Assembly: GCA_963796685.1 (NCBI GenBank)
Contig: CAWCMR010000006.1
Location: 192,001-256,000 of the forward strand
From: an uncultured delta proteobacterium
GTDB lineage: Bacteria; Myxococcota_A; Polyangia; Fen-1088
Length of the DNA: 64,000 bases
Reading direction: 5' to 3'
How positions within the stretch are numbered: the stretch's first letter is position 1; each line of letters begins with the position of its first letter. Position numbers and translations under genes: made by a program. The notes under the pieces were generated by a model. It had not been told where the DNA came from and searched no databases. It was given only the letters and a program-made list of their open reading frames with translations. Positions 4,245 through 25,748 of this stretch are shown here, in pieces.

Positions 4245-4727
4245 TCACGAAAGCACCTGCTCGACGAGCTCGAGCAGGTAGTCGATCTCGAACGGCTTGT
4301 CGAGCAGGGTCACGGCACCCAATTCGCGCGCGCGCTTGTGGGTGTCCTGGTCCCCGAAGGCGGTGAAAAGGATGAAGGGCGGCATGCCCGGCGTCCGTCC
4401 GAGCTTTGCCAGCGCTTCCAGCCCTGGCCACCCGGGCATGCGCAGATCCGTGAGCACCATATCGAACGGCGCGAAGGTTCCATCCGGGCTCAGCGAATCT
4501 CCCAGGATGTCGATCAAGTCCACGCCGTTGGACACCGCGACGACCTGGTACCCATCCTTGCGCAGCACCGACGAGAGCAGAAATCGAAATGGACCATCGT
4601 CCTCGGCGAGCAGCAGGCGCTGAGCGCCCGGGTGGATGTCGAGCTTCGCGTCGGGCATGATCCGGGCGGCGTATTCCACACCCGAGTCCTCTTGTTGGAG
4701 AGTTGGCATGTCATGAATCACCTGCAT
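4245..4727 (-). CDS. Single-domain response regulator (REC)
   Basis: LLLAEDD, DLRMPGWPGL, FTAFG, LDKPF; start uncertain (4727 or 4709). Confidence 0.9.
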   Translation of the reverse strand: MQVIHDMPTLQQEDSGVEYAARIMPDAKLDIHPGAQRLLLAEDDGPFRFLLSSVLRKDGYQVVAVSNGVDLIDILGDSLSPDGTFAPFDMVLTDLRMPGWPGLEALAKLGRTPGMPPFILFTAFGDQDTHKRARELGAVTLLDKPFEIDYLLELVEQVLS

Positions 4728-4762: not shown

Positions 4763-5047
4763 CTAGAGATTTTCGAAGGTCTTGACGAGCTCCGGCAGAA
4801 AGCTCCGACGGATTTCGATCAGGCTCTTCTGACTTGCCTTTGGAATTGCGCTCACCAGAAATCCATCGGGACGTTGCAGGTCGCCTTCGACCTGATCGTC
4901 CTCGAAATCGTAGTGGGTGGGCGCCGGGGCCGCCGCTTCTTCTTGACCGGAATTGGTCGTGGTGGTCTTTGCAGTCGTGGTGGTATTTGCGAGTGCTGGG
5001 ACCGCCAATCCCATGCTCAGCAGTAGAGCAATGGCAAATTTCTTCAT
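4763..5047 (-). CDS. cglF: CglF/GltF-like small secreted gliding-motility family protein
   Basis: Signal peptide, GGAGG RBS, motif YDFEDDQVEGDLQRPDG...SLIEIRRSFLPELVKT recognised as the CglF/GltF pattern. Confidence 0.7.
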   Translation of the reverse strand: MKKFAIALLLSMGLAVPALANTTTTAKTTTTNSGQEEAAAPAPTHYDFEDDQVEGDLQRPDGFLVSAIPKASQKSLIEIRRSFLPELVKTFENL

Positions 5048-5105
5048 GGCTTACCTCCTGGTGTCGGCTTGCGACAGGGTGGTCGAAGCCGTCATCCCCG
5101 AAGGG

Positions 5106-5121
5106 TGCATTTGCGATGCCA
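5106..5121 (-). promoter_or_regulatory. Sigma54 promoter for the cglF-like gene
   Basis: Minus strand TGGCATCGCAAATGCA (GG-N10-GC). Confidence 0.65.
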
Positions 5122-5177
5122 AGAACGGGAACGGACGCCCGGCGTCGGCAGAGCGCGCCGAAGCGCAAGGCCGTGCC

Positions 5178-5193
5178 TGGCATCGCGCATGCA
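5178..5193 (+). promoter_or_regulatory. Sigma54 promoter for receiver gene 5223
   Basis: TGGCATCGCGCATGCA (GG-N10-GC), divergent from and 14/16 identical to 5106-5121. Confidence 0.65.
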
Positions 5194-5222
5194 GCTCTAC
5201 TTTGGCCGAAGGAGATGTTGCC

Positions 5223-5690
5223 ATGCACCTAAGCGTGGAACCAAGCGAATCGACTGGCAGGCGAGCTTCGACCAAGGCCAGCGTGCATGCGCCAAGACGC
5301 CCGCGCGTCCTCGTCGCCGAGGACGAGTGGACCTTTCGAGCCATGCTGTTGTGGGCCTTCGAGGTGGAGGGCTACCGGGTCCTCGGGGTGGCCGATGGGC
5401 GCAAGCTGCTCGAGGTGCTGGCCTCCTCGATGCTGACCACCACCGGGCTCGATCCGTTCGATATGGTCGTCTCGGACATCAGGATGCCTGGGTGGAGCGG
5501 CCTTCCCGCGCTGGAGGAGCTGTGTCGCAGTCCGCTCGTGCCCCCGGTCGTCGTCATCACCGCCTTCGGCAGCGATGACCTTCACCATCGCGTCCAAGAG
5601 GCAGGCGCGGCCGCGGTCCTGGACAAGCCGTTCGACTTGGCCGACCTGACCGCGCTCGTGCGCCGTTTGATGGCCGTGCGCTCCGCTTGA
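5223..5690 (+). CDS. Single-domain response regulator (REC)
   Basis: GGAG RBS; VLVAEDE, FDMVVSDIRMPGWSGL, ITAFG, LDKPF. Confidence 0.9.
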   Translation: MHLSVEPSESTGRRASTKASVHAPRRPRVLVAEDEWTFRAMLLWAFEVEGYRVLGVADGRKLLEVLASSMLTTTGLDPFDMVVSDIRMPGWSGLPALEELCRSPLVPPVVVITAFGSDDLHHRVQEAGAAAVLDKPFDLADLTALVRRLMAVRSA

Positions 5691-7223: not shown

Positions 7224-10178
7224 ATGTTGCTCGATCGTCGCAGACTCTCTCGAACGCAATTGCTCCCCCTCGGAGCCCTAGCAACCCTTGCCGTCTTTGC
7301 CGTCTTCACTGGCTGTGGCCAGCACGAAGACCCTGCTGCCGGCTCCGGCGGCGCGGACTTGACCGTCAAGACGCTGCTGAGCACCGCTAACGTCACCGCC
7401 GTAACCGCCACGATTTCCGGCCCCGCCCTCTCCACGCCCCGCTCCGTCGCGCTTTCTTCGAGCACCACCGGAACCTGGGGCGCTCTCATCGGCGCGCTTC
7501 CAGCCGGCACCGGCTACGTCTTCAACGTCAGCGCCACCGACGTGAGCAGCGCCATACAGTACGCCGGCGTCGCCTCCAACGTCACCATCGTCCCGAATGT
7601 GGTGACCAGTGTCGTCATCACGGCCCAGCAGGCCGCGGCGCCGACGCCTTTCCAGAACTCGCTCCCCGTGATCGACGCGTTCGTCCTCTCGTCGAGCAAC
7701 GTCGCTCCGGGCGCCACCATCACCGCCGCGGTCACGGCCCACGATCCGGACGCTGGCGACACCCTCACGTACGCCTGGACGGTCAGTCCCAAGGGGAGTG
7801 TCTTCTCGGCCCCGACCGCCGCGACCACCAACTGGACCGCGCCCACCACGGCCGGCGCGTACACGCTCACCATCGCCGTCACCGATAACCACGGCGGGAC
7901 CGCCTCGGCCTCGGTCGTGGTGAACGTCTCGACCGGTAACGGCGTGGGCCAAGCCTCCCTCTCCGTCAACCTCAACACCTGGCCGGTGGTGACCAACATG
8001 GTCGCGGCTCCGAGCTACCTCGTCCTTGGCAAGCCGACCAAGCTGACCGCGGTTACCAGCGATGCGGACGGCGACCCTCTGACCTACGCCTGGACCAGCA
8101 CCTGCGCCGCCGGCTCGTTCAGCGCCGCCATGGCCCCCGTCACCACCTTCACCTTGCCCGCTGGCGACCCCGACACCAGCTGCTCGTTCAGCGTCGCCGT
8201 CAGCGACGGCCGTGGTGGCTCGACCACCGGTCAGGCCACCCTGCCCGTCGGCGCTCCTACTGCGGTCAGCTCTCCAGTCTTCACGGGCAGCTCGCAATCG
8301 CCCAACGTCGTGACCCCTGGCATGAGCGTGACCTTCCAGGTCACCGCCTCGGATCCGCAATCGAGCGCTCTCACCTTCACCTGGATTGCTCTTACGGGCA
8401 CCGTCTCGGGCCAGACCAACACTGCCAATTCGTCGCAGATCACCTGGACCGCCCCGGCCGGGACCTCGTCTAGCTCCACGGTATCCGCCGTGGCGACCGA
8501 TGCCCTCGGCCTGACCGTTGAGCTCGACTTCGCGGTCACGGCTTGCGCGGCCGCATTGAAGTGGCCCTACCTCATCTACCCCGGCCAGAACTCGACGATG
8601 CAGGTGCTCTGGCAGGACAACAACGCCGGCGAGTCGAATAGCGTTCGCTGGGGTACCGACACGAGCTACGGCCTCGGCAGCGCGGTCGCGCCCGAGTTCG
8701 GCGACAAGCAGCACTCGTACACCATCACCGGGCTGCAGCCGGACACGAAGTACTACTACCAGGTGACCGACACGTCCGTCCCGGCCTGCGTCTACGGCCA
8801 GGGCTCGTTCATCACCGCGCCGCTGGCCGACGCGACGTCCATCCGCTTCATCGGCCAGGGCGACTCTCGCAGCCAGCCGTTCGCGCTCGACAACCTGATG
8901 CAGGCGCTCACCCAGTTCACCTCCCAGCCCGAAAACGCGGACTACCAGCGCTTCGCCATCCACAACGGCGACTGGGTCAGCACCGACGGCGAGAGCTACT
9001 GGACGAGCCAATGGTTCGATCCCACCAAGAAGGACATCGTCGCGTACACGGCCAATACGCCCATCGACGGCGTCAAGGGCAACCACGACAACGCTTCGGG
9101 CTACAGCACCACTTTCCCGAAGTACTTCCCCTTCCCGTACCCGAACGCGACGCTCAAGGCTGGGACCGGGACCGGGACCAGCACTCCGGCCGCGTACAAC
9201 AACCTCTACTGGTCCATGGACTACGGCCCGGTCCACCTCACCTACGTCGACGAGTACTCGAGCTTTGCGCCTGGTTCGCAGCAGTACACCTGGCTCACGA
9301 ACGACCTCGCCACCACCACCAAGCCTTGGAAGATCCTCGTCTATCACGAGCCGGCGTACTCCGCGGGCTCGGACGGCGACAACACCTCCGCCCAAACCTA
9401 CCTCGAGCCGCTCATCACCCAGTATGGCGTGGACCTCGTCTTCGCCGGTCACAGCCACAACTACGCTCGTACCGGTGCCTATAACCTGACCCAGGCCCAG
9501 GGCGACCACATCGCCCTCAACGTCCCGCACATCACCAGCGGCGGCGGCGGCGCGCCGGTCTATCAGCCCGACATGACCAACACCCACAGCAAGTACCCGC
9601 ACGTCATCACGGCCTGGCCTGCCTTCGAGTTCGTGACCTTCGACGTGAAGCCGACCACGCTCACCATGACCGCCTACCAGGTCAACAACGTGAGCTTGAC
9701 GGCCATCATGACGCCGGCCGCGCTGACCCTCTCGAAGATCGAGACCATCGTGCTCAATCACTTCAGCAACGTCACGCCGCAGTTCACCGCGACGACGAGC
9801 GCGTTCGTGCAGGATCCGACGACCGGTCACTACATGGGCAACCTGACCCTCACCAACAATGGTACGGATGTTGCCGGAACCGTCGACGTCGTGCTGGACG
9901 GCATCCTGAACCTCGCCGGGATTGGCAATGCAGACAACGAGTACAGCACCGCGAGCCCGCCGCTCGCTTCGAAGATCGCCCAGAACACCGGTTTGGCGAC
10001 GACCGTCACGGTGGTCGGTGCGACCGGCTCTAACAACGGCGAGCCGATGATCCGGGCCACCAGCAGCGGCGTCCTGGCCAGCGGCCAGATCGTCGTTCCG
10101 CTGGAGCTCGACATGGGTACCGGTGGCATCGATCCGAACGCCACCAGCTTCTTCACCCCAGTGGTCCTGAAGGAGTAA
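7224..10178 (+). CDS. Large lipoprotein: Ig/PKD-like repeats + FN3-like domain + purple-acid-phosphatase-type metallophosphoesterase
   Basis: AAGGAG RBS, lipobox FTGC, three D(P/A)..D.LTY/FxW Ig repeats, LQPDTKYYYQV, metal-ligand motifs GDSR, NGD, GNHD, HEP, GHSH. Confidence 0.88.
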   Translation: MLLDRRRLSRTQLLPLGALATLAVFAVFTGCGQHEDPAAGSGGADLTVKTLLSTANVTAVTATISGPALSTPRSVALSSSTTGTWGALIGALPAGTGYVFNVSATDVSSAIQYAGVASNVTIVPNVVTSVVITAQQAAAPTPFQNSLPVIDAFVLSSSNVAPGATITAAVTAHDPDAGDTLTYAWTVSPKGSVFSAPTAATTNWTAPTTAGAYTLTIAVTDNHGGTASASVVVNVSTGNGVGQASLSVNLNTWPVVTNMVAAPSYLVLGKPTKLTAVTSDADGDPLTYAWTSTCAAGSFSAAMAPVTTFTLPAGDPDTSCSFSVAVSDGRGGSTTGQATLPVGAPTAVSSPVFTGSSQSPNVVTPGMSVTFQVTASDPQSSALTFTWIALTGTVSGQTNTANSSQITWTAPAGTSSSSTVSAVATDALGLTVELDFAVTACAAALKWPYLIYPGQNSTMQVLWQDNNAGESNSVRWGTDTSYGLGSAVAPEFGDKQHSYTITGLQPDTKYYYQVTDTSVPACVYGQGSFITAPLADATSIRFIGQGDSRSQPFALDNLMQALTQFTSQPENADYQRFAIHNGDWVSTDGESYWTSQWFDPTKKDIVAYTANTPIDGVKGNHDNASGYSTTFPKYFPFPYPNATLKAGTGTGTSTPAAYNNLYWSMDYGPVHLTYVDEYSSFAPGSQQYTWLTNDLATTTKPWKILVYHEPAYSAGSDGDNTSAQTYLEPLITQYGVDLVFAGHSHNYARTGAYNLTQAQGDHIALNVPHITSGGGGAPVYQPDMTNTHSKYPHVITAWPAFEFVTFDVKPTTLTMTAYQVNNVSLTAIMTPAALTLSKIETIVLNHFSNVTPQFTATTSAFVQDPTTGHYMGNLTLTNNGTDVAGTVDVVLDGILNLAGIGNADNEYSTASPPLASKIAQNTGLATTVTVVGATGSNNGEPMIRATSSGVLASGQIVVPLELDMGTGGIDPNATSFFTPVVLKE

Positions 10179-10188
10179 GTTCGCTAAC

Positions 10189-10228
10189 GGGACGACGGGG
10201 GCCTTCGGGCCCCCGTTTCCCATTTTTT
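10189..10228 (+). terminator. Rho-independent terminator or stabilising hairpin
   Basis: ACGGGGGCC-TTCG-GGCCCCCGT followed by TTCCCATTTTTT. Confidence 0.75.
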
Positions 10229-10238
10229 GTGATTGGAA

Positions 10239-11411
10239 ATGCGCAACCTTTTCGCCATTGCAATAACCGCAACAACCCTCGGCGTGCTGCCGCTGGCGCC
10301 TAGCGCCGCGCATGCTGAGTCGGACGACCCGACCACAAGCGCCCTGAAGCAGACAGCGCAGCAGGCCTATCTCGAAAAGCGCTTTGACCAGGCCATCGCC
10401 CTCGACCTCGAAATCACGCAACACCCCGAGAGCCAAGTGCGCCGCTACGCCGTGCAGATGTTGGGGACGCTGTACGAAGACAACGTCGTCGATGTCGCCG
10501 CCGCTATTCGCTGGGATCGGGAATTCCTGGAGAAGTACGCCGATGTGCGCCAGGTAGCCTTCTACCGGCAGAAGATCGCCACGCTCGAGCAGGTGCTTCC
10601 GCAGAAGGACGCCTTCGCAACTTACCAAAAGATTCGCTTCGCCAACCAGGGCGACGAGGTGCAGGTGCAGCAGCTCGAGGCCCTGCTGAAGGAACATCCC
10701 GACTTCTTCCTCAAGGACAGGGTCCAGGCGGAGCTGGGCTACGCCTACGCCCGCATGGACAAGCACAAGCAGAGTTATCTCGCGTTCCAGGCGCTGTCAC
10801 AGAGCGGAAAGCCAATGTCGGCCGAGCACATGAAGGCCTACCAGGCGGCCGCCCTGCATTTCAACGAGACCTCGCGCTGGGGCTTCGTCGTGTTGGGCAT
10901 CGTGCTCGGGCTGTGGGGCGTGGTGCTCCTCGGCAAGCCGTGGAGGCGGATCACCCGACGCGCGCTCTGGAAGCTTCTCGCCATTGCTTTGGCCTGGGTT
11001 GCGCTGAACGTGGCCCGCATGCCAGGCTTCTACACCATCGAGACAACGGGCTATCCGGTCGTCATTCCCGACACAGTCGTCTACACAGGCATCGCGCTCA
11101 ACCTGACCGTTATCGTGTGGCTCTTCCTATTGAGACGTGGATCGTTCTGGGGGCGCTGGCCGAAGATCGTGCGCCTCGTCGCCAGCCCGCTTCTCGTGGT
11201 CGTGATGACCACGTCCGTCCTCTATCTGCTCGTGATCCGGCAGCCGAACGGGCCGGAGATCGTCGACGTCTTCCCCATGGTGTACCATCGCTGGGTCGAG
11301 GATATGAGACGCCCCAAAGGTCCGGTCGTGCCCAGCGCCGAAGCGCACGAGAAGAAAGCCGTGGGCGGCCCGCCGACCGTACCGGCCATCGCACATAAGG
11401 GGGAACCATGA
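10239..11411 (+). CDS. Exported TPR-like helical protein with C-terminal 4-TM segment
   Basis: Signal peptide (AHA-E), TPR-like helices (AQQAYLEKRFDQAI, AELGYAYARM), four hydrophobic stretches. Confidence 0.75.
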   Translation: MRNLFAIAITATTLGVLPLAPSAAHAESDDPTTSALKQTAQQAYLEKRFDQAIALDLEITQHPESQVRRYAVQMLGTLYEDNVVDVAAAIRWDREFLEKYADVRQVAFYRQKIATLEQVLPQKDAFATYQKIRFANQGDEVQVQQLEALLKEHPDFFLKDRVQAELGYAYARMDKHKQSYLAFQALSQSGKPMSAEHMKAYQAAALHFNETSRWGFVVLGIVLGLWGVVLLGKPWRRITRRALWKLLAIALAWVALNVARMPGFYTIETTGYPVVIPDTVVYTGIALNLTVIVWLFLLRRGSFWGRWPKIVRLVASPLLVVVMTTSVLYLLVIRQPNGPEIVDVFPMVYHRWVEDMRRPKGPVVPSAEAHEKKAVGGPPTVPAIAHKGEP

Positions 11412-11620
11412 CGGGAAAAATCCTGAAAGTGAAGACCGGCTACAACCCGAACTCCAGCAGCATCGGGGTCGACATGGTCGCCTTCTTCACCATTGGTGCG
11501 GGAATGACGGTGCTCTTCAACCTTATCGCGACCTTCATTGACGGCATCCACGGCAAGCAGCGACCGGGCGAGGCCGAGCAAGGCAAGACGGAAGCGACGA
11601 CGGAGGCGAAACCGGCATGA
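11408..11620 (+). CDS. 70-aa single-TM peptide with N-terminal KVKTGYNPNSSS motif; candidate radical SAM substrate
   Basis: ATGA overlaps with both neighbours (11408-11411, 11617-11620); AAGGGGG RBS; one hydrophobic helix. Confidence 0.75.
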   Translation: MTGKILKVKTGYNPNSSSIGVDMVAFFTIGAGMTVLFNLIATFIDGIHGKQRPGEAEQGKTEATTEAKPA

Positions 11621-12771
11621 GCGCGATCCGACATCGCTTCGAGTCCTTCGGCGGCATCCTGGCCATGGAAGATCCGCCGATGCTCGTACACGTGGACCGC
11701 GACTTCATGCGCAGCCTGGGCCATTCGGCCTGCTCGGCCTGGGAAGAACCGGAGACGCGGCTCCTCAGCGCACCGCTGGAGGTTCACCTTGCGGTGACCA
11801 ACACCTGCTCGCAGCGCTGCGGCCACTGCTACATGGACTCGGGGCCAAGCGACGCTGGCGAGCTGTCGTCGGCGGAGCTCCGGCGAGCCATCGACCTGCT
11901 CGCGGACATGGGCGTGTTCCACGTTGCGCTCGGGGGCGGAGAGGCCCTGGAGCGGCCCGACTTCTTCGAGCTCGCCGCCTATGCGCGCGACCGCGGCATG
12001 GTCCCCAACTTGACCACCAATGGAGCTCTTCTGACCCGCGAGACGGCCGAGCGATGCCGTATCTTTGGTCAGGTCAACGTCAGCATCGACTCCCTCGATT
12101 CCCTCGATGGGGGCGCGCAGGCCGCGCGGCTCCGCGCGGTGGACCTTTTGCGGGAAGCTGGGATCCGCGTCGGGATCAATTGCGTCGTGACCCGAGAAGG
12201 CCTCGATGGCCTGGCGAACCTCATCGCGTTCGCGAAGGAGCGAGGGCTTGTCGACGTGGAGCTCCTCCGGCTCAAGCCCTCGGGCCGCGGGAAAAAGGAC
12301 TACTTCGAGCAGCGACTGACCCGGGCTCAGAACGAGAATTTCTTCCCGTTCATCCGGGACCTGTCCTTGAAGCACGGCGGCTTCCCGGTGAAGATCGACT
12401 GTTCGTTCGTTCCGATGTTCTGCTGGCACCGACCGGACAAGAGCCTCATGGAAAAGTTCTCGGTCTACGGGTGCGAGGCCGGCAATGTCCTTCTCGGGGT
12501 GCGTTCCGACGGCAGGTTTGCCGGCTGCTCCTTTCTGTCGGGCGAGGAATCCATCTTCGACTTGCCGGAGCTTTGGCGGACCTCGAAGCACCTCGGCCGC
12601 CTGCGTGGCTTCATCGAGCGCGCGCCGGAGCCGTGTCGCTCCTGCGACTACTTGGATATCTGCAAGGGGGGCTGCCGCGCGGTGGCCGCCTTCGTCGCTG
12701 GCGATGCCTTCGCTCCGGATCCCGAGTGTCCGTTCGCGGTGACGATGAGCGAGCGCAGCGTGGGATCGTGA
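11617..12771 (+). CDS. Radical SAM enzyme with SPASM domain
   Basis: CSQRCGHC (CxxxCxxC), GGGEA, TTNG, SID, SPASM cysteines CEAG...GCSF...CRSCDYLDICKGGCRA...DPECP. Confidence 0.93.
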   Translation: MSAIRHRFESFGGILAMEDPPMLVHVDRDFMRSLGHSACSAWEEPETRLLSAPLEVHLAVTNTCSQRCGHCYMDSGPSDAGELSSAELRRAIDLLADMGVFHVALGGGEALERPDFFELAAYARDRGMVPNLTTNGALLTRETAERCRIFGQVNVSIDSLDSLDGGAQAARLRAVDLLREAGIRVGINCVVTREGLDGLANLIAFAKERGLVDVELLRLKPSGRGKKDYFEQRLTRAQNENFFPFIRDLSLKHGGFPVKIDCSFVPMFCWHRPDKSLMEKFSVYGCEAGNVLLGVRSDGRFAGCSFLSGEESIFDLPELWRTSKHLGRLRGFIERAPEPCRSCDYLDICKGGCRAVAAFVAGDAFAPDPECPFAVTMSERSVGS

Positions 12772-12773
12772 GC

Positions 12774-14039
12774 ATGCGCAGACGACTGGTTGCGGCCTTT
12801 CTGGCAGCGGTAGCGCTGACGGGAGGCGCGCCAGCATTCGCACACGATTTGCCGATGGGAGGATCGCGCTGGTCCTTCGGTCGGAACCGGATCGTCGCCA
12901 ACATCGACCTCGGCCCCTCGCTGCTGCAGTCGATCAAGGGCATCCATGAGGGGGGCTATCCAGTCGGCAGCCTGTCGGACGAGCAGATGCACCAAGTGGC
13001 GATCGAAATCCTCCAGCCGTATCTCGATGAGAAGCTGTCGGTCACCGAGGACGGCAAGGCGTACCCGGTGAAGGTCGATAGGCTGGTGAATAGCGGGAAC
13101 GTCTACACGATCTGGATCTCGGTCGAGCGGATCCCGCTCGACCTTGGGCGGCCCGTCACCATCGATTACAAGCTGCTCTTCGACGAGACCCAGAACGCGC
13201 ACCTGAACCTCGCCTACGGATACGTGTCCGAAGCCACCGGAGACGCTCTGAAGTCGGTGTTCGACTACTCACCACCCGCGATGCAGTACACGTTCGAGTC
13301 GTCCGCGCACACTTGGACGGTGATCCCGCCGGACATTGCAAAGACCGGGGCGGCGAGCACTGCTATCCCGTCGAGAGGTCGGCCCAGCGTCACGCTGCCC
13401 GGAGCAAAGGCGGGCACGTCGGCGACCGCGCAGGCGCCGACGCCGATATCGCCTCGCTCGGGGTGGAGGGAGATCCTCGCCAATGTCGGACGCTTCGTGC
13501 TGCTCGGCATCGAGCACATCCTGACCGGGTACGACCACATCGCATTCCTCTTGGCGCTCGTGCTCGTCGCGCCGTCGTTCAAGGCCGTCCTGCCCATCAT
13601 CACCGCCTTCACGGCAGCCCACAGCATCACGCTGCTGTTGGCGGCCCTGGGCGTGGTCAGGCTTGATTCCAGGCTGGTCGAGTCGGCCATCGCGGTCTCC
13701 ATCTGCTACGTCGCCGTCGAAAACCTGTTTCGGAAGAAAATCACACACCGTTGGCTCGTGACTTTCTGCTTCGGGCTCGTCCACGGCTTCGGGTTCGCGA
13801 GCGTCCTGCAGACCCTGATCGTCGGCAGGGCGAATCTCGTCAGCTCGGTCGTCTCGTTCAACGTCGGCGTGGAGCTCGGGCAGCTCATGATCTTCGCCGC
13901 GTTGCTCCCATTGCTGCGCCTCCTCGCCGCGCTCATCGCGCCCCGGAAGATCACCATCGCCGCCTCGGCCGCCATCGGCCTGCTGGGCTTCATCTGGGTC
14001 CTCGAGCGGGGCTTCGACTTGAAGTTCCTGTGGCTGTGA
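12774..14039 (+). CDS. HupE/UreJ-family membrane protein with exported N-terminal domain
   Basis: Signal peptide ending AFA-H; LGIEHILTGYDHIAF, TAFTAAHSITL, FGLVHGFGFA, FNVGVELGQ. Confidence 0.9.
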   Translation: MRRRLVAAFLAAVALTGGAPAFAHDLPMGGSRWSFGRNRIVANIDLGPSLLQSIKGIHEGGYPVGSLSDEQMHQVAIEILQPYLDEKLSVTEDGKAYPVKVDRLVNSGNVYTIWISVERIPLDLGRPVTIDYKLLFDETQNAHLNLAYGYVSEATGDALKSVFDYSPPAMQYTFESSAHTWTVIPPDIAKTGAASTAIPSRGRPSVTLPGAKAGTSATAQAPTPISPRSGWREILANVGRFVLLGIEHILTGYDHIAFLLALVLVAPSFKAVLPIITAFTAAHSITLLLAALGVVRLDSRLVESAIAVSICYVAVENLFRKKITHRWLVTFCFGLVHGFGFASVLQTLIVGRANLVSSVVSFNVGVELGQLMIFAALLPLLRLLAALIAPRKITIAASAAIGLLGFIWVLERGFDLKFLWL

Positions 14040-14082
14040 GCTGGCGATCGACATCTGCTGTTTATCTGATATGCTCATTGGC

Positions 14083-14538
14083 ATGAGCGCTCACGCCGAA
14101 ACCCTGACCGACTTTCTCCGCCAGCCGAAGCCTATCCTGAAGAAGCTGGCTAGGGAGGATGTTGTCCTGCACCGGCGTGGGGCTGTGGCCCTCCGTCTAT
14201 CCTTGGACACACGATCCTCCGCATCTTCTGCAGGCACCGAGATTGCGGCCAGTCTGCTTGCGGACCTGGTGAATGTTCCTCAGGTTCCGGATTCCCTGGG
14301 CATCCTCCTGGCAGCCCGCTTCCCTTGGATGAAGTTTCTATCCAAGGACGCCAAGCAGGCGTTCGTGTACGAGTTCATCGAGACCGTGCAGGCGTGTGCC
14401 GCCGTTGGAAACAGCGCCGCACTGAACGAGGTCGTTCACGCCTGGAAATCCACGGCTGCGATCTATGCAGACCCCAAGCTGGCGGCGGACCTGAGCCGTT
14501 CCCTTCTCGGTACCCGGGCCAAGGTTCCACGTCCCTGA
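14083..14538 (+). CDS. Putative type II antitoxin (Phd-like N-terminus)
   Basis: LTDFLRQPK..L...DVVLHRR, FPWMKFL, AWKSTAAIYADP; stop overlaps the toxin ATG. Confidence 0.65.
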   Translation: MSAHAETLTDFLRQPKPILKKLAREDVVLHRRGAVALRLSLDTRSSASSAGTEIAASLLADLVNVPQVPDSLGILLAARFPWMKFLSKDAKQAFVYEFIETVQACAAVGNSAALNEVVHAWKSTAAIYADPKLAADLSRSLLGTRAKVPRP

Positions 14539-14888
14539 TGGCCAAGCGTGGCGAACGAGTGGCCCCGCCTCCGCGAAGGGGCGAATGGGAACTGCGGTTT
14601 GGTGAATCCGAAGCGGCAGCCGGGTGGGAAGAGCTGTGCCGTCAGGCACCAGGCCCCCTTCGTGAAGCCTGGGATGTTCTGTCCCGAGATCCTCGCGGCA
14701 GGACCAACCCCGACAGGCAGCATAGGTTGCGTAGCGACCTGGGCATCCGAACCATCAAGGGCAAGGTGCTTGAGCAGTGGCAATACGAGGTCACCGGCGC
14801 TGGAAGAATCTGGTACTGCCCGGATGATGCTCTCCACGTCGTGTTCATCACGAAGGCAAGCACTGGCCATCCCGGCGAGACCGACTGA
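14538..14888 (+). CDS. Putative type II toxin, RelE-like
   Basis: RVAPPP..EWELRF, RQHRL, QWQYEVTGAGRIWY, HPGETD; translationally coupled to the antitoxin. Confidence 0.65.
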   Translation: MAKRGERVAPPPRRGEWELRFGESEAAAGWEELCRQAPGPLREAWDVLSRDPRGRTNPDRQHRLRSDLGIRTIKGKVLEQWQYEVTGAGRIWYCPDDALHVVFITKASTGHPGETD

Positions 14889-15098
14889 CGTCCGCAAAGG
14901 AACCACGATCGTCGTGACCCTCGCGCGCGTCGTCCGTGGCCCAGCAGGATCTCCTGGTCGATCCTCCGAGCTGAGAGTCGCCAGCTCCTCGGCGAGCTCT
15001 TCGATGTGAGCGTCTTGGGTGCGCGATTTCTCTAAATCCCTCTACCCAGGGCCCTCGATCCGGTACAGTCTCGGGAAACGGAAGGAAGTCGAAAGACC

Positions 15099-15929
15099 AT
15101 GCCCGCTATGTCAGCCTTTCCAAAAGGCTTCCACCATGTTCCGAAAGCCTTGGCTCAGTGCCGCCGGGCGCTCTGGCTGCTCCTTACGACCGGATGTGGC
15201 TTCCAGACCGCTCTCGACGTGCCCGGTACGGCCCCGTCGGTCAGCATGGGTGGGGCTGGTGGTGGCGGGCTTATAAGTTCCGGCGGAGCAATTCTCACGG
15301 GTGGTGTGGTAGGCACTGCGGGCGTTGTCGGCAACGGTGGGACGAGCGGCGAATCCGGAGGGACCGGTAGCTCCCCGGCGAGCAGCGGCTGCGCCATGGA
15401 CGCGAATCATCCCGGCTACCTCCACTGCGGCCCGTGGAACGGTTACGCCTGGGCTCTCGCCACAGAGCCCGACCAGGGCAGCAGTATATCTCCCTCCAAT
15501 TTCGCGTCCGCTAGCGGGCTACCGTTTTGCGCCAGGGGGGTGCTGGCTCGTGATGACAGCGCGGTCGGTTTGCTCGGCTTCAATGTCAATCAAAGCATGA
15601 ACGGGGACGTGAATCAGTCCCCGGGAACATGGGCGGTCACTGGCAAGGGCCTCAAGTATGAGGTCAGCAATCCAGGGGGCTCGCCGCTCAGAATTCAAAT
15701 CCAAGGCGCGAAGGGCTGGCCTGACGAAACCTGGTGCGCGGACATCTCCGGCTCATCAAGCAGCGGCTCTGTCCCCTGGTCGACCTTCAACACAATGTGC
15801 TGGGCGCCCAGCGGACCCCCAGGTTATGACGGCCAGACCCCACTCGAACAAGTCATGCTTCTGGTTCCCGGAATCAATGGGACCGAACAACCATTCAACG
15901 TCTGCCTCATCGGTCTTTACCCCTACTGA
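15099..15929 (+). CDS. Hypothetical lipoprotein with Gly-rich linker and Cys/Trp-rich (carbohydrate-binding-like) domain
   Basis: LLLTTGC lipobox-like; GG-rich linker typical of myxobacterial lipoproteins; start uncertain. Confidence 0.6.
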   Translation: MPAMSAFPKGFHHVPKALAQCRRALWLLLTTGCGFQTALDVPGTAPSVSMGGAGGGGLISSGGAILTGGVVGTAGVVGNGGTSGESGGTGSSPASSGCAMDANHPGYLHCGPWNGYAWALATEPDQGSSISPSNFASASGLPFCARGVLARDDSAVGLLGFNVNQSMNGDVNQSPGTWAVTGKGLKYEVSNPGGSPLRIQIQGAKGWPDETWCADISGSSSSGSVPWSTFNTMCWAPSGPPGYDGQTPLEQVMLLVPGINGTEQPFNVCLIGLYPY

Positions 15930-16218
15930 CGCGGTCGCCAGCCACGGACCGAAGCCCGTGCGATGTGCAAGCACGACGTTCGGCCCGGGGCGCGAGGCAC
16001 GGGCAGCCTTCATCTTCTTCGCCCATTTGGCGACGTCGTGTACTTCTTCGTGGTGAAGGTGTCGTACACGGCTTGGGCCAGCTTGGCTATAGTCTCCTCG
16101 CGCGTTCGGCAAAGAGAAGCGGCCAACGTCGTTGGCGGCGTCGGTTCTGCTGTCTTGGGTGCGCGAGCTTCCGCTCTTGGGTTTGCAGCGATTCCTGAAT
16201 GGGGCCATCATCATCCAC

Positions 16219-16872
16219 ATGGTCGCAGGGCTCTGCATCGTGCTCTCGTGCGTATTCGCGCTTAGCTCGTGCCATTCCGAAGGACTGAGAGTGCCGACCG
16301 CTCACGACGCCGGCTTGGGTACCAACGCCAACGGCGGCCAGGCGGGTCACGTTGGCCTGACCGCGAGCGATGCGAGCGCGAGCGGCGGGACCACGCGCGA
16401 CACCAGCGGGAGCGGCGGGATCACGAGCGATGCGAGCGCGAGCGGCGGCATCACGCGCGACGCCAGCGGCCGCGTGAACGTCACCTTCAACTACTCGCCC
16501 CCTTCCTTCATCGGCGTTGATTGCACGGAAAACTCGCCACGCGACCCGGTGGATGTCGGTCTCAACGTCGTCTTCAGTCCCCCCGAAGGGGAATCGCCCG
16601 ATTCGGTCACCTTCCCAGCGGCGCGCATCGAGTTCACGAACACGTCGAACGCATTGACCTGGACTTTCGAGGTCATGACCGAGCCTCTCATAGTGGGCCC
16701 GCCGCTCGTGGACAAAAGCCTGTGGAAGGTTGCCGACTCGGGCTTGGGTCAAGGGAGCGGCGTTCCGTGCGACTACTGCGACACCATGGCCGAGCTCGAT
16801 TTGCAAGTGGTGAGTCCCGCCCAGACTCCCTATTGGGCGACGGGATTGTCGCCGGTGCAGTGTCAGAGGTAG
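16219..16872 (+). CDS. Hypothetical lipoprotein with internal 10-aa repeats
   Basis: MVAGLCIVLSCVFALSSC lipobox; repeats SDASASGGTT/RDTSGSGGIT. Confidence 0.55.
   Translation: MVAGLCIVLSCVFALSSCHSEGLRVPTAHDAGLGTNANGGQAGHVGLTASDASASGGTTRDTSGSGGITSDASASGGITRDASGRVNVTFNYSPPSFIGVDCTENSPRDPVDVGLNVVFSPPEGESPDSVTFPAARIEFTNTSNALTWTFEVMTEPLIVGPPLVDKSLWKVADSGLGQGSGVPCDYCDTMAELDLQVVSPAQTPYWATGLSPVQCQR
16362..16470 (+). repeat. Coding tandem repeat, 30-bp unit, about 3.6 copies
   Basis: cgagcgatgcgagcgcgagcggcgg recurs at 60-bp period, alternating with cgcgcgac(a/g)ccagcgg. Confidence 0.8.
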
Positions 16873-17019
16873 GCGAGGATCGAGGAGGTATGAAGTCCTG
16901 GATCTCGGTGAGGCGCGTGGCAGATAGCCCGAAAGCCCGCACCGAAGCCGTTTTGCCGCGCCAGAGCGATTTCGCGCGGCACCCCCTAGCTCGGCAAAAG
17001 TGTGGCAAGCTAGGGAGCG

Positions 17020-17253
17020 ATGGCAACGTACGAGTGCATCTCTGTGGACCCGGCGCAGATGGGCGGTACTCCCCGTATCAGGCGCCTGTGTATCCCGGTG
17101 GCCACGGTCGTTGGAATGGCGGCTGAGGGAATGGCGACCGACGAGATTCTGGCCGCCTATCCCGACCTCGAACGCGAGGACATCGCCGAGTCCTTGCGCT
17201 ACGCAGCCGAGGCCGTCCGAGAACGAGACCTGCCACTTCGGACCGTCGCCTGA
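17020..17253 (+). CDS. DUF433-family antitoxin-like protein (orphan)
   Basis: ISVDPAQMGGTPRIR..IPVATVV....EGM..DEILAAYPDLEREDI; GGGAG RBS; no downstream PIN toxin ORF. Confidence 0.85.
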   Translation: MATYECISVDPAQMGGTPRIRRLCIPVATVVGMAAEGMATDEILAAYPDLEREDIAESLRYAAEAVRERDLPLRTVA

Positions 17254-17352
17254 CATGAACTACCCTCGGAGAGGATCAGCTCCCCATCTCGGGAAACTCG
17301 CCACGCATCGATTCGGTGGGCAAGACGTTGATATGAAACCCTGCCCTGAAAA

Positions 17353-17409
17353 CACCTCGCCCCGCGCAGCGGGGAGAGGTCGCCGAGCGCAGCAAGGCGG
17401 GTGAGGGGC
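17353..17409. repeat. 57-bp REP-like palindromic repeat, intergenic copy
   Basis: CACCTCGCCCCGCGCAGCGGGGAGAGGTCG...GGGTGAGGGGC; second copy in opposite orientation at 22876-22932. Confidence 0.8.
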
Positions 17410-17744
17410 TGCCACGTTTCATGCCTGAAGGATCCGGCCATTGGCCCGGTGGAGGCAGGAGCTCTTTGGTGTCCATGGTCGAGCATGTATTTCGCCCAAA
17501 CCCACCCTGCCGCCTTCCCCAGGCCCCCCGGTGCACCGCCCGTTCACGACTGCTGCCCACCCCGCCAGACCCTCCCCACCGGAAGGCGGGTCTTGGTCAG
17601 AATACAATGGCTTGCGTCGTCGACCTTCGCGAGCTTCTCGGCAGACACCCCAAACTCATAGGCTTGGTCCAAACTCGATGAGCACCCTCGTCCGAAGAAT
17701 CCCTCTCCCAAAAGACGGGCATATTCGGCACCATCTCCGGCATA

Positions 17745-20700
17745 TTGAGCGTCGCGTCGGCATTCGTCTCCCAGATCGGGGCACTGGCCGCCGTTCCCGC
17801 GTTTGTCAAGGTACTAGTGCCGGTGATCTGCGCAATACTCGCAGTCATCCTGGTGTGGTTCTCGCTGCCCTTGCCGTCGAGGCTCTTGCAGCCCGAACGC
17901 TTCCGTCTTTTGTCGCGCGTTCCGACAGATCTCGTTGGACGAGACGAGGACATCGAGAGACTGGTAAGGAACTGCAGCCAGCATGTTCTGACGTTCCTGG
18001 TCGGCGAATCAGGCGCCGGGAAAACCGCCCTCGTTCAAGCAGGTTTGGTTCCCGCGTTGTCTGGTCAACGCCAGAACGCCGCAGGAAACGCACGGTTTGT
18101 GCCTCTGAGCATCGACCTGTCCTCAGTTCCTTGGGAGCGTGGCCTGCATCAAGCTGTTGCAGACAGCCTATGCCGACTTGAGCAGCGAGATCTCGACAGT
18201 CTGAAAGCAACCGCTCCGGTGGGGAACTTCGACGCTTGGTCGTGGATCAGGGAGCTACCTGCTCGCACGCCCAAGCGCCTCCTTCTGATCTTCGACCAAT
18301 TTGATGACTACCTATCTGCGCACCGCGAGCGGTTCTATGAAGGCACAACACTCCGGCGCGCTTCGGAAATAGCAACAGACGGGGATTGGCGTGAGGTTCA
18401 GAGCCTACTCCGCGACGAGGAGATCCACCTCATCGTCATTGCCCGATCCGATGTCGGCGCCGCTCTTTCGGCGCTTCAATTTGTGGACGAGAGCAAGTTC
18501 ACCCATCAGGAGCTTCATTCAATCAAGACAGGCCTCATCTCACCGCTCCTTGAGCGAATAGCACTGGCACCCGACCAATCGCCTGTCATTGAGAATCCAG
18601 AGTTTGGGTGGATGGCACTGCAGCACCGAATTCTTCGGGACATTCAGGATGAACGCGGCGAGGTGCTTCCGATCCGACTGGCTGTGGCTCTCAGCGGTTT
18701 GCGCTTCACTCGTCGCCACCTGCTAACGCTGCGCGAATACGAACGACTCGGTGGGCTCAGCGGACTCGAGAAGCAGCATATTCAGCGTGTGGTCGAGTCG
18801 GCGGGCAGGGTGGCAAACATACCTAAGGATGATATCTTGGAAGGCATTAGGAGCCTATTGGTGGCTCCCGACGGCAACAAGGCAACTTCCTGTAGTAAGC
18901 AGGATTTTGCAACGGCCCTCCGCCAGCGGTCCGCATCGGGTTCTGCGGAAGAAGCCGTGAGGATCCTCCTTGAGGAACTAATGCTTCGCACCAGCGCCTC
19001 AAGCGACAAGGATGATCCCAGGCTCCTGCTGTACCACGACTACCTCGCACGTCCCCTGCGGGATGCTCAGGGTGAGGCAACGAAGTGGGACGACTTCGTC
19101 TGCAAGAGGAACCAACAGCTTGCAGACGCAACCGGGCTTGAATGGTGGCGTGCACTGCTTTCAATGGGCGAGCAGCTCAAGTTGGTCGGCCATATTCTGG
19201 CACGACGAGTATCGCTCACATCCGCCGGAAGCCTGATCGCCAAGAGCTTTCTTCGTTGGATTCCAGCCGGCATACTCGTTGCGCTTGCTGGTCTGGGCGC
19301 CTGGCAATACTCCGTCTACCGAAATCAAATGATGGTGAGGGAGACCATGAAGGCCATCGGGCACGGCGAGCTTACGGAGGAGGAGGCTCGCGATCTCAAG
19401 CACCTCTGGACTGGCGACAGAGGTCTGCTTACATTGGCCCTCCAACTCGCGGATGACGTCGTAGTGGCGAAGAGGGCAGCAACCCGCGCACAGTACATTG
19501 CCCAAGTCGCTGTGGGCCTCGACGTTACTGGCCGGAGGTCGGACAAGCTCGCCGAAAACATTCTGCTTCCTGCTCTGACAACAGGGAGACCCGGTCAAGT
19601 CCTGATGGCCTCGGCGATTGTGGCTTCAGACCAGCTACGGCTTCTCGATTCCACGTCAACCAAACTCGCGCAGGCCATCGTGGAGCAGTTGAAGGACGCT
19701 TCCCAGGACACCCTTCCTTCGTTGGTTAGTGCCCTCGGCAAGGTCCCGGCACGGATAGATGCCGACCGGTCTTTGATGACCACGAGCTCGCTACTCGATC
19801 GACTGCTGGCTGGAACGCCCTCACCAGAGGAGGATTTCAGGGTATCTGAGGCAGTCTCCGCGATTGCACCGCGGTTAGATTCCCCCACCGGTATTCAGAT
19901 CTTGAGCACCTATCTGCCCAGGTTGCTGGCGCAGAGGGATCCTGCGAGCATCTGTAGAACGGCGCAAGCATTGGCGAGAATCGCAACAGCGATTCCCGGA
20001 CGTGAGCGCGCACGACTCGCCCCGCCTGTTTGGGAGAGGGTCCGAGACGTGACGAACTGGCCGAATGTTGTTTCCTGTCTTGGTGTGCTGGCGACCACGC
20101 TGACCGCAGACGAGTCCAGCACGGACGCGTCTGAGATCGCTACGCAGTTGCTTGCGCGACTAGAAAGTGACGGCGACAGTCACACCCAATCCAGCTTGGC
20201 TGGCGCGGTTGCTTCTTTGAAACCGCATCTTGAGAGTCGGGAAGTCCTTCGCGCAGCCAGGGCCGTGTTGGGACGGATGCGACAGGAATCGAACACGCTT
20301 TTCGGTGGAGGCGCGTTGGAGGCGTTGTCGCGGTTGCTGAGCAACGACGACGCTCAGCGCCTTGCAGACGAAGTGCTTGAGCTGATGAAGACATTTCCGC
20401 CCAGCGATGCGCAGGCTATCCAGGATCTCGGTCGGACCTTGGTGGAACTGGCACCCCGCCTCGACAGCCAAGCCGATTTGCGGCTGGCAAGACAGCTCTT
20501 GACCCTGGCTGAGCGTGCGAACGAGCTACAGGCAACGTCATTTCTGATGCTCACGACTCAGCTCATTCCCAGTCTGGATGTCGCAAACGCCGCAGACTTG
20601 GCTCGTGATCTCCTAGCATGGACAACGGCCAGGAAGGAGCAAACATTCTTCTGGGAGGACACCGGGCGCGCGCTATGCCTCCTGTGCGAAAAGCTCAAGG

Positions 20701-21314: not shown

Positions 21315-21413
21315 GATGGAGTCCATGACGTTTGGTTCCTAAGCCGCGATCGGCCCCGCCGATAGGCGAGGGCGACGTGAGACGGGTGCCGCAGAGGATT
21401 ACCCTCTAGTTGG

Positions 21414-22373
21414 TCAACGTGATGGCCACATCTTCTCTGCAAGCTGCTGCGACATCTGCAATCGGATGCTGCCGATTGGACGAAGTGCATTATTCATGGC
21501 GAATTCGAGCCAGCGGCGTCCATCGGTAAATGCACCCTTCATCGCATGCTGGAACTGCTGAATGGCTGCGGCCTTCAGGGACTCATCCTTAACAATTACT
21601 GCATGTCGAAGGATTTTCGCCATTACGTCTGACCCATCATCAACAGAAGGAAGGCTCTCGAGAACGTGGGCTGCGTTGGCGGAAATCTCAAAACCTAACT
21701 GAAGTGCCGTATCGACGATCTCGCGCTCTGCGGGATTGAGTTGCTCGGTGCGTTTCTCAATCCACGGCGGCAAGGGAAGCGTCTCGATGATGACTATGTG
21801 CGCAATACTCGTGAGGTCTTCAAGCCTGGATCCGTGCGTCCATCTTCCCGCGAGCAGACTCCCGATTGCGTAAAGCACCTCCAGGCGCACTCGCAGTCCA
21901 TATCCCCATGCGTATTGACCCAAGAGGCGGATCCGCTGAATGACCTCACTCAAGCCGCCATAGGGCCCGCAAGATGGGCCAAGTTTTCTCACCTCCATGG
22001 TTGCAAGAGCATCCAGAAAGTCTTCTTGACTGGTGGACTCACTTCCAGGGAGTGAGGGCCTCCTGCGCGCGTTCCGTCTCTCCTGGACCTCGGAGTACCA
22101 CTCATCACGGTACCGCCTGACCACCACGGCTGACAGTTTCCTGGTTAGGCTTGTGGTCTTCGACGCCTCCTCATGGTGCTCGTGGCAGAGCAGGGCAAGA
22201 TTTTCAAGGCCATCGCCTGCCCTTCTTCCGTCAACATGATGGACCTGAACGCCCTTACGTGCCTCATGGTAGATGCAGCAGACGCGGTCCGACTTCCACA
22301 TCAGGTCCGCTTCTACGTTCGGGGAGAGACGTGGGCGACGTTTTGCCGCTGGGAGTGTCGTCTTCTTAGCCAT
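21414..22373 (-). CDS. HNH-like nuclease domain protein with helical C-terminus
   Basis: SDRVCCIY..QVHHVDG....ENLALLCHEHH; one expected Zn-ligand Cys is Tyr. Confidence 0.7.
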   Translation of the reverse strand: MAKKTTLPAAKRRPRLSPNVEADLMWKSDRVCCIYHEARKGVQVHHVDGRRAGDGLENLALLCHEHHEEASKTTSLTRKLSAVVVRRYRDEWYSEVQERRNARRRPSLPGSESTSQEDFLDALATMEVRKLGPSCGPYGGLSEVIQRIRLLGQYAWGYGLRVRLEVLYAIGSLLAGRWTHGSRLEDLTSIAHIVIIETLPLPPWIEKRTEQLNPAEREIVDTALQLGFEISANAAHVLESLPSVDDGSDVMAKILRHAVIVKDESLKAAAIQQFQHAMKGAFTDGRRWLEFAMNNALRPIGSIRLQMSQQLAEKMWPSR

Positions 22374-22435
22374 GGCCAGCATGCTATCCGATCCCCTATC
22401 TGCGGTCCTGATAGATGGCGGCTTCCAATCCCATT

Positions 22436-25740: not shown

Positions 25741-25748
25741 GGGTAAGA

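Follow-up and report, generated by a model that had tools for sequence, protein, structure and literature searches.

The window analysed here is a stretch of 64,000 nucleotides from an uncultured delta proteobacterium (contig CAWCMR010000006.1, positions 192,001 to 256,000), and its region 7224-14039 encodes a small single-span membrane protein, referred to here as PEP, immediately ahead of a radical SAM enzyme of the SPASM type (rSAM), of which PEP may be the membrane-anchored substrate. A sequence-only reading of this DNA had described five co-oriented genes in the region, the second to fourth chained by ATGA overlaps and the fifth starting 2 bp after the rSAM stop codon. All five open reading frames (ORFs) were found on the forward strand, and the sequence bears out both the overlaps (11408-11411 between gene 2 and the PEP gene, 11617-11620 between the PEP and rSAM genes) and the short gap (stop codon at 12769-12771, ATG of the HupE-type gene at 12774). 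The features under discussion are the following:

7224..10178, forward strand: exported metallophosphoesterase (MPE; gene 1), 984 aa, recognised by its Pfam domains and signal peptide
10194..10217, forward strand: terminator-like hairpin and T-run between the MPE gene and gene 2, with the tail TCCCATTTTT
10239..11411, forward strand: TPR-like/4-TM protein (gene 2), 390 aa from the ATG at 10239 (392 aa from an alternative TTG start at 10233)
11408..11620, forward strand: PEP, single-span membrane protein (gene 3), 70 aa, candidate rSAM substrate
11617..12771, forward strand: radical SAM/SPASM enzyme (rSAM; gene 4), 384 aa, of an uncharacterised clade
12774..14039, forward strand: predicted Ang-1-like domain fused to a HupE/UreJ-2 permease (gene 5), 421 aa
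28266..30713, forward strand: TonB-dependent receptor, with Plug and TonB_dep_Rec_b-barrel Pfam matches

A run resembling a Shine-Dalgarno sequence (AAGGGGG, identified by eye) lies 5 nt 5' of the PEP start codon. Because the hairpin at 10194-10217 is a strong terminator-like element (a stem of ten pairs, eight of them G-C, and a loop of 4 nt) that splits the MPE gene from the other four, the five genes may form two transcription units; a promoter scan upstream of the operon found nothing useful. Evidence from RNA is weak. One RNA-library run contained 6% of the sampled words, and its contigs cover pieces of the region, namely the 3' end of the MPE gene, the TPR-like gene, the junction between the TPR-like and PEP genes (11303-11494, bridged by one contig) and the HupE-type gene. 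As these contigs are only 90-99% alike to the window they come from relatives; DNA carry-over is possible, and gaps in their coverage are uninformative.

PEP consists of MTGKILKVKTGYNPNSSSIG, followed by a hydrophobic stretch and a charged tail, with its Kyte-Doolittle peak at residues 19-47, and the basic N-terminus, single hydrophobic span and charged tail that the sequence-only reading ascribed to it are all present. A word-indexed search returned 68 relatives and a profile search over 1.84 billion representatives returned 513 cluster representatives at E<=1e-3, which places the ORF far above chance. In an alignment of 34 sequences, with identity down to 35-40%, L6 and K9-G20 are invariant, and the invariant N-terminal motif is GKILKVKTGYNPNSSSIG. 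Over a larger set of 214 sequences (the 68 word-search relatives and the newly listed profile-search representatives) the consensus is G-[RK]-[IV]-L-[KR]-[VI]-K-x-G-Y-N-P-N-S-S-S-[IVLM]-G, with G[YFW]NPN kept in 211 and the remaining three being one-residue variants. Among the 211, the glycine is followed by Y in 200 sequences, by F in 10 and by W in one, and asparagine always comes next, so that the motif 'K.R.GFV.NSSS', which the sequence-only reading had offered as similar, is not what is found here. Throughout the family the motif leads into a hydrophobic segment of about 26 residues and then a basic stretch, and 149 of the 150 best representatives are no longer than 153 aa; an apparent fusion of 331 aa (P0263) was set aside, as its low-complexity, Arg/Pro-rich N-terminus gives it the look of an over-called ORF. 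The 13-residue core is encoded by 100 distinct DNA versions in the fetched loci, with synonymous codons at each position and all six serine codons at the third Ser of the motif, which argues for selection on the protein. PEP is a real protein under strong selection. It matches no family in Pfam or NCBIfam release 20.0, and its best ESM Atlas match (0.80) fell under the 0.9 lead level and was not used. A divergent PEP (..RRGRAPNCSSAG..) occurs in the window's phylum directly upstream of lower-scoring rSAM homologues (L130, at about 2889, and L139:2742-2960), with the pattern [RK]-[IV]-L-x-V-R-R-G-R-[AS]-P-N-C-S-S-A-G, in which Cys replaces the first Ser and there is no Tyr.

The enzyme encoded next to PEP is a member of the radical SAM superfamily (Radical_SAM, PF04055, 68.1 bits against a cut-off of 29.5), and all 26 sequences compared keep the three cysteines of its CxxxCxxC motif (C64, C68 and C71). 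The SPASM motif consists of seven C-terminal cysteines for two auxiliary 4Fe-4S clusters. In rSAM, C262, C286, C304, C340, C343, C349, C353 and C371 are invariant across the 26 sequences (45-90% identity), and the spacing C286...C304, C340-x2-C343-x5-C349-x3-C353, C371 places it in the SPASM subgroup; no Pfam SPASM family was matched at E<=0.01, where just PF04055 and Fer4_12 appear, and the alignments to the MftC, NirJ2 and PqqE models are full-length and reach the C-terminus. Its best curated NCBIfam model is MftC (TIGR03962; 156.8 bits, below the cut-off of 265), followed by NirJ2 (135.4 against 500), GeoRSP (128.3 against 400), AhbD (123.1 against 500), NirJ (118 against 515), NirJ1 (109.2), AhbC (100.5 against 650) and PqqE (TIGR02109; 99 against 381.35). 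No curated cut-off of release 20.0 is reached, and the enzyme lies outside the characterised families, including NirJ, AhbC and AhbD, membership in which would have counted against the sequence-only reading; in public sources its relatives carry generic names only.

The solved sequences nearest to rSAM in a profile search are PqqE (6c8v, E 3.6e-24), SkfB, SuiB, MoaA and anSME (E 2.7e-10), and the folds nearest to its AlphaFold model (predicted local distance difference test, pLDDT, 79.8; predicted template-modelling score 0.82) are SuiB, PqqE, SkfB, anSME (4k39, E 5.2e-12), TigE, CteB and ChlB. Its nearest relatives are peptide or protein modifiers. Ahead of the catalytic part runs an N-terminal extension of about 50 residues that is itself conserved (R7, E9, F11, G12, G13, P20, P21, L23, V26, D27 and W42 are invariant or nearly so); its model, which is of low confidence (pLDDT 51-59), shows three short strands with two short helices, which fits what a small peptide-docking element might look like. 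No PqqD-like partner is encoded nearby, and no MftA or MftB match (NCBIfam, Pfam) was found among the seven window proteins scanned, a check of annotated ORFs only, MftA being very short. The identity of rSAM is 66-74% between phyla and 45-52% in the more distant type of cassette described below; the PEP motif alone is similarly constant. In a sister clade of rSAM the N-terminus reads R-x-E-R-F-G-A, and the crude ORF lists for the DNA downstream of these loci were uninformative.

The association of the two proteins was followed in both directions. A scan with the PEP motif against one genome per species gave 44 loci, in which the other parts of the cassette were sought by tblastn; 29 of them are close, with a PEP 47-88% identical to the window's, and 15 are distant. 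According to the labels of the database records they come from Myxococcota/'delta proteobacteria', Geobacter and its relatives, Syntrophobacter, Nitrospirota, Acidobacteriota, Planctomycetota, Cytophagia, Fibrobacterota, Raymondbacteria and one Pseudomonadota metagenome-assembled genome (MAG), and the clade is also listed for Desulfobacterota and Bacteroidota. Every close locus fetched by PEP holds rSAM (29 of 29), and 28 of them also have the TPR-like/4-TM protein, 27 the HupE-type protein and 26 the phosphoesterase; the missing parts fall at a contig edge (L003, L016, L021) or beyond a fetched stretch that was too short (L011). The companions that had been proposed for the PEP-rSAM pair do, then, travel with it across phyla, and as the phosphoesterase sits after rSAM in L011, L014, L024 and L029, this permuted order argues for linkage and for more than inherited synteny. 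Among the distant loci rSAM was present in 10 of 15; the five without it are L032 and four short or contig-edge loci. The genome of L032 has an rSAM orthologue elsewhere, on a different contig (E 1.5e-168), and this orthologue has a PEP motif of its own about 1.3 kb upstream. At L032:3859-11093 itself, in the Pseudomonadota MAG, PEP lies beside a phosphoesterase resembling purple acid phosphatases (PAPs) and two TPR proteins, with no adjacent rSAM.

Searching instead with the rSAM alignment gave 80 metagenome loci, 61 close (66-91% identity) and 19 distant (49-54%). Where a close locus offered at least 300 nt of upstream sequence the PEP motif was found in 50 of 51, in 47 of them within 300 nt, and where a distant locus offered at least 1700 nt it was found in 12 of 12. 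The proposal that the peptide motif is kept beside homologues of this rSAM therefore holds from either side, and an arrangement typical of systems for RiPPs (peptides that are made on the ribosome and modified after translation), a precursor gene beside its maturase across taxa, recurs in 29/29, 50/51 and 12/12 loci. Within the window's own phylum, 301 sampled genomes gave PEP in 30, rSAM (E<=1e-90) in 39 and both in 28; with the best rSAM scores (E<=4.1e-108) PEP was present in 25 of 25 genomes, and with weaker hits in 3 of 14. Two genomes of the phylum gave PEP without rSAM (G011, E 3.7e-7; G110, E 9.9e-4, a marginal match).

What else belongs to the cassette was estimated by clustering all ORFs of loci L001-L124; as the ORF caller was crude, and sometimes returned antisense ORFs in high-GC DNA, the neighbour counts are lower bounds. 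The close type, to which the window belongs, comprises the phosphoesterase, the TPR-like/4-TM protein, PEP, rSAM, sometimes a free HupE N-terminal domain, and the HupE-type protein, and the phosphoesterase family recurs in at least 72 of the clustered loci. Other recurrent neighbours are a TonB-dependent receptor (at least 25 loci), a 209-aa protein, p209 (at least 20), and a 367-aa protein, p367 (at least 18), both of no known family, a pentapeptide-repeat protein (at least 15), TonB (at least 13) and ExbB (at least 7); the recurrent families without known function are p209, p367, p276 and p214. Among the annotated recurrent neighbours of either cassette type there is neither a protease nor an ABC exporter, in keeping with what the sequence-only reading had remarked of this locus, nor is there a tetrapyrrole or cofactor pathway gene, and no cleavage motif recurs in either type.

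The distant type occurs in Planctomycetota, Bacteroidota and others (L030-L044, L106-L124; for example L037:5087-14343), and its order is a larger TPR/4-TM protein, a periplasmic protein of about 276 aa, a first PEP, a ResA/TlpA-like thioredoxin lipoprotein, a phosphoesterase fused to a multi-span domain, a second PEP, a TPR/4-TM protein, rSAM and a protein of about 214 aa. The TPR/4-TM protein that precedes rSAM is weakly similar to that of the window (E 0.001 pairwise). The multi-span domain, which is C-terminal, bears two conserved membrane cysteines and matched nothing in the PDB or Pfam; a HupE-like identity was rejected (probability 0.06% in hhalign against the HupE alignment), and its cysteines and the adjacent thioredoxin suggest no more than a tentative likeness to CcdA/DsbD. 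No TonB-dependent receptor is among the recurrent families of this type. The constant core of the cassette is therefore rSAM, PEP, the TPR-like/4-TM protein and the phosphoesterase, and around it the accessory genes point to a supply of periplasmic metal in the close type (the Ang-1-like/HupE protein and TonB) and of thiol redox equivalents in the distant type (the thioredoxin-like protein and the cysteine-bearing membrane domain).

The phosphoesterase of the window has Pfam matches to K319L-like_PKD, Big_9, Pur_ac_phosph_N (38.5 bits, cut-off 30) and Metallophos (PF00149; 50.8 bits, cut-off 21.5), and comprises a signal peptide ending in a lipobox-like FTGC (by eye), Ig-like repeats, the catalytic part and a C-terminal region of no known family. 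The sequence-only reading had called it a surface metallophosphoesterase; its export is borne out by the signal peptide and the lipobox-like sequence, and its placement at the surface is not. Residues from about 430 to 984 are conserved in 26 of the 29 close loci, and the catalytic half is nearest to the plant PAPs (6gja, E 1.2e-17). The signature of PAPs is a set of seven metal ligands, among them the tyrosine of GDxxY. In the 47 close-type sequences the motifs GD, GD, GNH[DE], H and GHxH are kept in 46-47, and the position of the tyrosine ligand is occupied by S in 35 of them, by G in 6 and by A in 4; the close-type phosphoesterases thus lack the full set of seven while keeping the other ligand positions, and since the tyrosine position is S, G or A, a purple Fe(III)-tyrosinate site is not expected. 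In the distant type GNH[DE] becomes GDND and GHxH becomes SW-H. Twin-arginine export was considered and rejected, the RR pattern appearing in just 2 of 63 phosphoesterase N-termini, and as the signal peptides are of the ordinary Sec type the protein would cross the membrane unfolded.

Gene 2 had been named a TPR/4-TM gene. Its four hydrophobic segments are there (214-232, 246-264, 274-292 and 315-333), following a signal-like N-terminus and a helical domain of about 190 residues that is predicted to be periplasmic; the TPR half of the name fared less well, as no TPR family matches the window protein and the label derives from Atlas clusters and sub-threshold matches. The protein matched no Pfam family at E<=0.01 and none in NCBIfam, and its residues 1-214 gave no TPR match at E<=1, the only match being HEAT_2 at E 0.007; the nearest Atlas clusters are automatically named TPR (0.95 and 0.93), and the distant-type counterpart reaches 24.9 bits against the TPR_2 cut-off of 27. 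The family does show conserved sequence blocks.

Gene 5 is a HupE/UreJ-2 permease (HupE_UreJ_2, PF13795, which spans residues 241-385 and scores 160.4 bits, cut-off 24.5) headed by a predicted Ang-1-like, periplasmic metal-binding domain, which the sequence-only reading had not noticed, any more than the receptor, TonB and ExbB that accompany such cassettes. The mature protein is predicted to start ...AFA|HDLPMGGSRW (cleavage site by eye), with H24 as its first residue, and this histidine is invariant in 25 of 25 sequences. The model of the N-terminal domain (pLDDT 80-94 over residues 28-185) has as its best fold match 9gce, a Cu-bound Ang-1 domain (Foldseek E 1.3e-4, TMt 0.57; VIA Z 11.7, root-mean-square deviation 5.6, 144 of 168 residues), and the next-best folds are ZrgA (Z 10.1) and PA4063 (Z 9.2), both zinc-binding according to their entry titles. 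A search of gene 5 against PDB sequences gave no match at E<=1, Ang-1 being found by fold search only. At several Nitrospirota and Acidobacteriota loci (L007, L012, L013, L017, L025 and L027) the full-length HupE-type gene is accompanied by free-standing copies of its N-terminal (Ang-1-like) domain, which lie between or beside the rSAM and HupE genes.

In close relatives the TonB-dependent receptor follows directly after the HupE-type gene, and in the window it lies about 14.2 kb away; the window's receptor is 71.5% identical over 685 aa to the one that follows HupE in L045. The intervening DNA (14040-28265) holds a DUF433 protein (17020-17253), an nSTAND1/NACHT NTPase (17745-21314), an HNH protein (22436-23620), an overlapping RVT_1 reverse transcriptase ORF (23058-24443), a DUF222 protein (24805-25803) and an alpha/beta hydrolase (25864-27012), and its GC content drops to 0.58 at 18-22 kb, compared with about 0.64 in the surroundings. 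This segment has the appearance of a mobile or defence island that entered the cassette by insertion. Upstream of the cassette, ORFs at 4245-4727 (reverse strand) and 4953-5690 (forward strand) resemble, by eye, response-regulator receiver domains (LLAEDD..., ...D-x-R-M-P-G).

In our view PEP is best read as the membrane-anchored substrate of rSAM, a reading to which we would give about an even chance of being correct. The main argument for it is the tight, two-way coupling of PEP and rSAM across phyla; it draws further on the translational coupling of the two genes, on the succession within PEP of a strand-like recognition part and a small polar site, on the kinship of rSAM to tyrosine-modifying peptide maturases, and on the conserved N-terminal extension of an enzyme that has no partner carrying a RiPP recognition element (RRE). 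The topology of PEP, the site and kind of chemistry, the anchoring of the product and the link to the phosphoesterase and metal uptake are what we infer from these observations, as follows. The basic N-terminal 20 residues of PEP would face the cytoplasm in a signal-anchor (N-in) topology, which would keep the motif within reach of the cytoplasmic rSAM. The strand-like G-[RK]-I-L-K-V-K part would serve in recognition, and the enzyme would abstract a hydrogen within T-G-Y-N-P-N-S-S-S, the outcome being a cross-link or oxidation at Tyr12 (as PqqE and MftC act at Tyr) or else a reaction at Asn or Ser. The narrower proposals of the sequence-only reading, that modification falls on NSSS and that its product would mature, metallate or display the phosphoesterase, stay conjectural. 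The product would stay in the inner membrane, probably beside the TPR-like/4-TM protein; as no protease or exporter recurs with PEP, it is probably not released. The cassette as a whole would serve a metal-tied periplasmic function, with the modified PEP linked to the phosphoesterase and to metal uptake. Carried to its full extent, the proposal is that rSAM turns T-G-Y-N-P-N-S-S-S of PEP into a tyrosine-derived or cross-linked, membrane-tethered cofactor or ligand beside the 4-TM protein, which the phosphoesterase and metal uptake would need and which might serve redox upkeep or metal hand-over across the membrane; we put this fuller version forward tentatively, as a minority possibility.

A number of observations weigh against a substrate role for PEP. 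Basic residues flank both ends of its hydrophobic segment, which leaves the topology ambiguous, and it is unlike a classical RiPP precursor, since cysteines, a C-terminal core and a cleavage site are all missing from it; nor is the leader removal and export that mark RiPP pathways in evidence, no protease or transporter being among the annotated recurrent neighbours. To our knowledge there is no precedent for a radical SAM substrate that keeps a membrane anchor. The extension of rSAM is too short for a full RRE, and its model is of low confidence. The coupling itself has exceptions: at L069 the 930 nt available upstream of a close rSAM hold no PEP, and TonB_C-like and ExbD-like ORFs (by eye) stand there instead; in L054, L077 and L078 PEP is 2.3-4.3 kb from rSAM; 11 of the 39 phylum genomes with rSAM gave no PEP match, one of which (L130) holds the divergent PEP; and in five loci of the sister rSAM clade (L129, L131, L133, L136 and L137) there is no PEP-like ORF within 3 kb upstream. 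Last, the number of PEP copies equals that of the TPR-like/4-TM protein (each is present twice in the distant type and once in the window) and not that of rSAM, so that a structural partnership fits as well as a substrate role.

This last observation is what recommends the idea that PEP is a membrane subunit or tether docking rSAM by the 4-TM protein through its invariant cytoplasmic N-terminus, and that the enzyme modifies something else, most plausibly the still unfolded phosphoesterase precursor before Sec export, in the manner of anSME with sulfatases, or else the 4-TM protein. The phosphoesterase does belong to the constant core (in 26 of the 29 close loci and in at least 72 clustered loci), its Sec-type signals, with RR in 2 of 63, imply an unfolded crossing, and anSME is among the nearest folds to rSAM; at L032, moreover, PEP accompanies the phosphoesterase and TPR proteins where rSAM is not adjacent, although that genome does hold an rSAM with its own PEP beside it. 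Yet the all-polar, small-residue G-Y-N-P-N-S-S-S resembles a reaction site more than a docking surface, and the phosphoesterase yielded no conserved motif that might be a target, the conserved residues found in it being metal ligands. We consider a tether of this kind unlikely, if not strikingly so. A rather different fate for PEP, as the precursor of a released peptide (for instance a metal-binding RiPP) that is cut from its anchor, exported and then re-imported by way of the TonB-dependent receptor, is modelled on the methanobactin operons, and the recurrence near the close-type cassette of the receptor (at least 25 loci), TonB (at least 13) and ExbB (at least 7), together with a metal-capture permease that belongs to the cassette, would suit it. 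Such a peptide is nevertheless quite improbable, as neither cassette type has a recurrent protease, exporter or cleavage motif, the invariant part of PEP is N-terminal and, having no Cys and no His, offers no obvious metal ligands, and the distant type has no receptor among its recurrent families.

It is also conceivable that the target of rSAM is a small molecule, be it a tetrapyrrole, as for NirJ, AhbC and AhbD, or some other cofactor, and that PEP is an unrelated protein of the transport machinery. NirJ2, AhbD, NirJ, NirJ1 and AhbC do stand among the ten best NCBIfam models at 100-135 bits, and MoaA and BlsE are among the PDB matches; however, the NirJ and Ahb scores are far under cut-offs of 500-650, MftC is the top model and the best relatives of solved structure modify peptides, and the annotated recurrent neighbours include no gene of a tetrapyrrole or cofactor pathway. 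A small-molecule role would moreover leave the two-way coupling of PEP and rSAM without explanation, and we regard it as very unlikely.

Peptide-paired SPASM enzymes have already yielded PQQ, mycofactocin, the sactipeptides and streptide, along with further novel chemistry. If PEP is a substrate, a membrane protein would widen the range of targets known for SPASM radical SAM enzymes, and if it becomes a tethered cofactor it would represent a new class among radical SAM products, distinct both from RiPPs that are released and from cofactors that are soluble. The phosphoesterase as a constant companion, with the TonB-dependent receptor and the Ang-1-like/HupE protein as frequent ones, points to a part for the cassette in acquiring metal or phosphorus where soils and sediments are anoxic. 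A cultured carrier of the cassette, Geomesophilobacter sediminis Red875 (L029), makes testing direct, as does a candidate substrate short enough for a synthetic peptide. The cassette is widespread and undescribed; PEP, the 4-TM protein and the rSAM clade are without a Pfam or NCBIfam release 20.0 model, and no published description of the motif or the cassette was found in the literature searched, which did not take in subscription journals and supplements.

Several known systems share parts of this arrangement. The permease has its counterpart in the 'anglerase'-HupE/UreJ-2 architecture described in PMC12537917 (Nat Commun 2025), for which metal capture followed by hand-over to the permease is proposed. 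Gene 5 follows the like order of signal peptide, N-terminal His, periplasmic domain, linker and HupE_UreJ_2, and differs in that its N-terminal domain is only 10-15% identical in structural alignments, with no detectable likeness in sequence. According to the same paper, metallophosphatases often neighbour Ang-2 genes, Ang-1 occurs particularly in Pseudomonadota and Ang-2 is restricted to Actinomycetota; the term 'radical SAM' is absent from its main text. The phosphoesterase, for its part, is like the PAPs in combining Pur_ac_phosph_N with Metallophos, in having plant PAPs as its top PDB matches and in keeping, in the close type, six of the seven ligand positions, and unlike them in the replaced Tyr ligand of the close type and the GDND and SW-H of the distant type.

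The closest comparison for the pair itself is with MftC/MftA and PqqE/PqqA, in which a SPASM enzyme acts on a Tyr of a dedicated small peptide encoded at its side; PEP likewise has a Tyr within its invariant motif and lies directly upstream of rSAM, to which it is translationally coupled; MftC is the best curated model, aligned over its full length, and PqqE is both the best solved sequence and a top fold. In contrast to these systems, rSAM misses both cut-offs, neither a PqqD nor an MftB partner, nor the further genes of those pathways, was found among the annotated ORFs, and the motif of PEP is N-terminal rather than C-terminal, in a protein with a membrane anchor and no hint of release. The cassette recalls anSME in another respect, as this SPASM enzyme acts in the cytoplasm on a Ser or Cys of a protein that is later exported by Sec, and the cassette has a Sec-exported hydrolase; that hydrolase is, however, a metallophosphoesterase and not a sulfatase, no target of the C/S-x-P-x-R type was identified in it, and the cassette has in PEP an extra, invariant small protein. 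In the QhpD/QhpC system, which matures quinohaemoprotein amine dehydrogenase, a small subunit is cross-linked by a SPASM enzyme while still in the cytoplasm and goes on to serve a periplasmic enzyme, which resembles the idea that PEP might serve the periplasmic phosphoesterase; PEP differs in being without cysteines, and neither a QhpE-type protease nor a QhpF-type exporter is present. A SPASM enzyme with a dedicated small protein is thus a known pattern, and what is new here is the membrane-anchored partner and the gene context in which the two are found.

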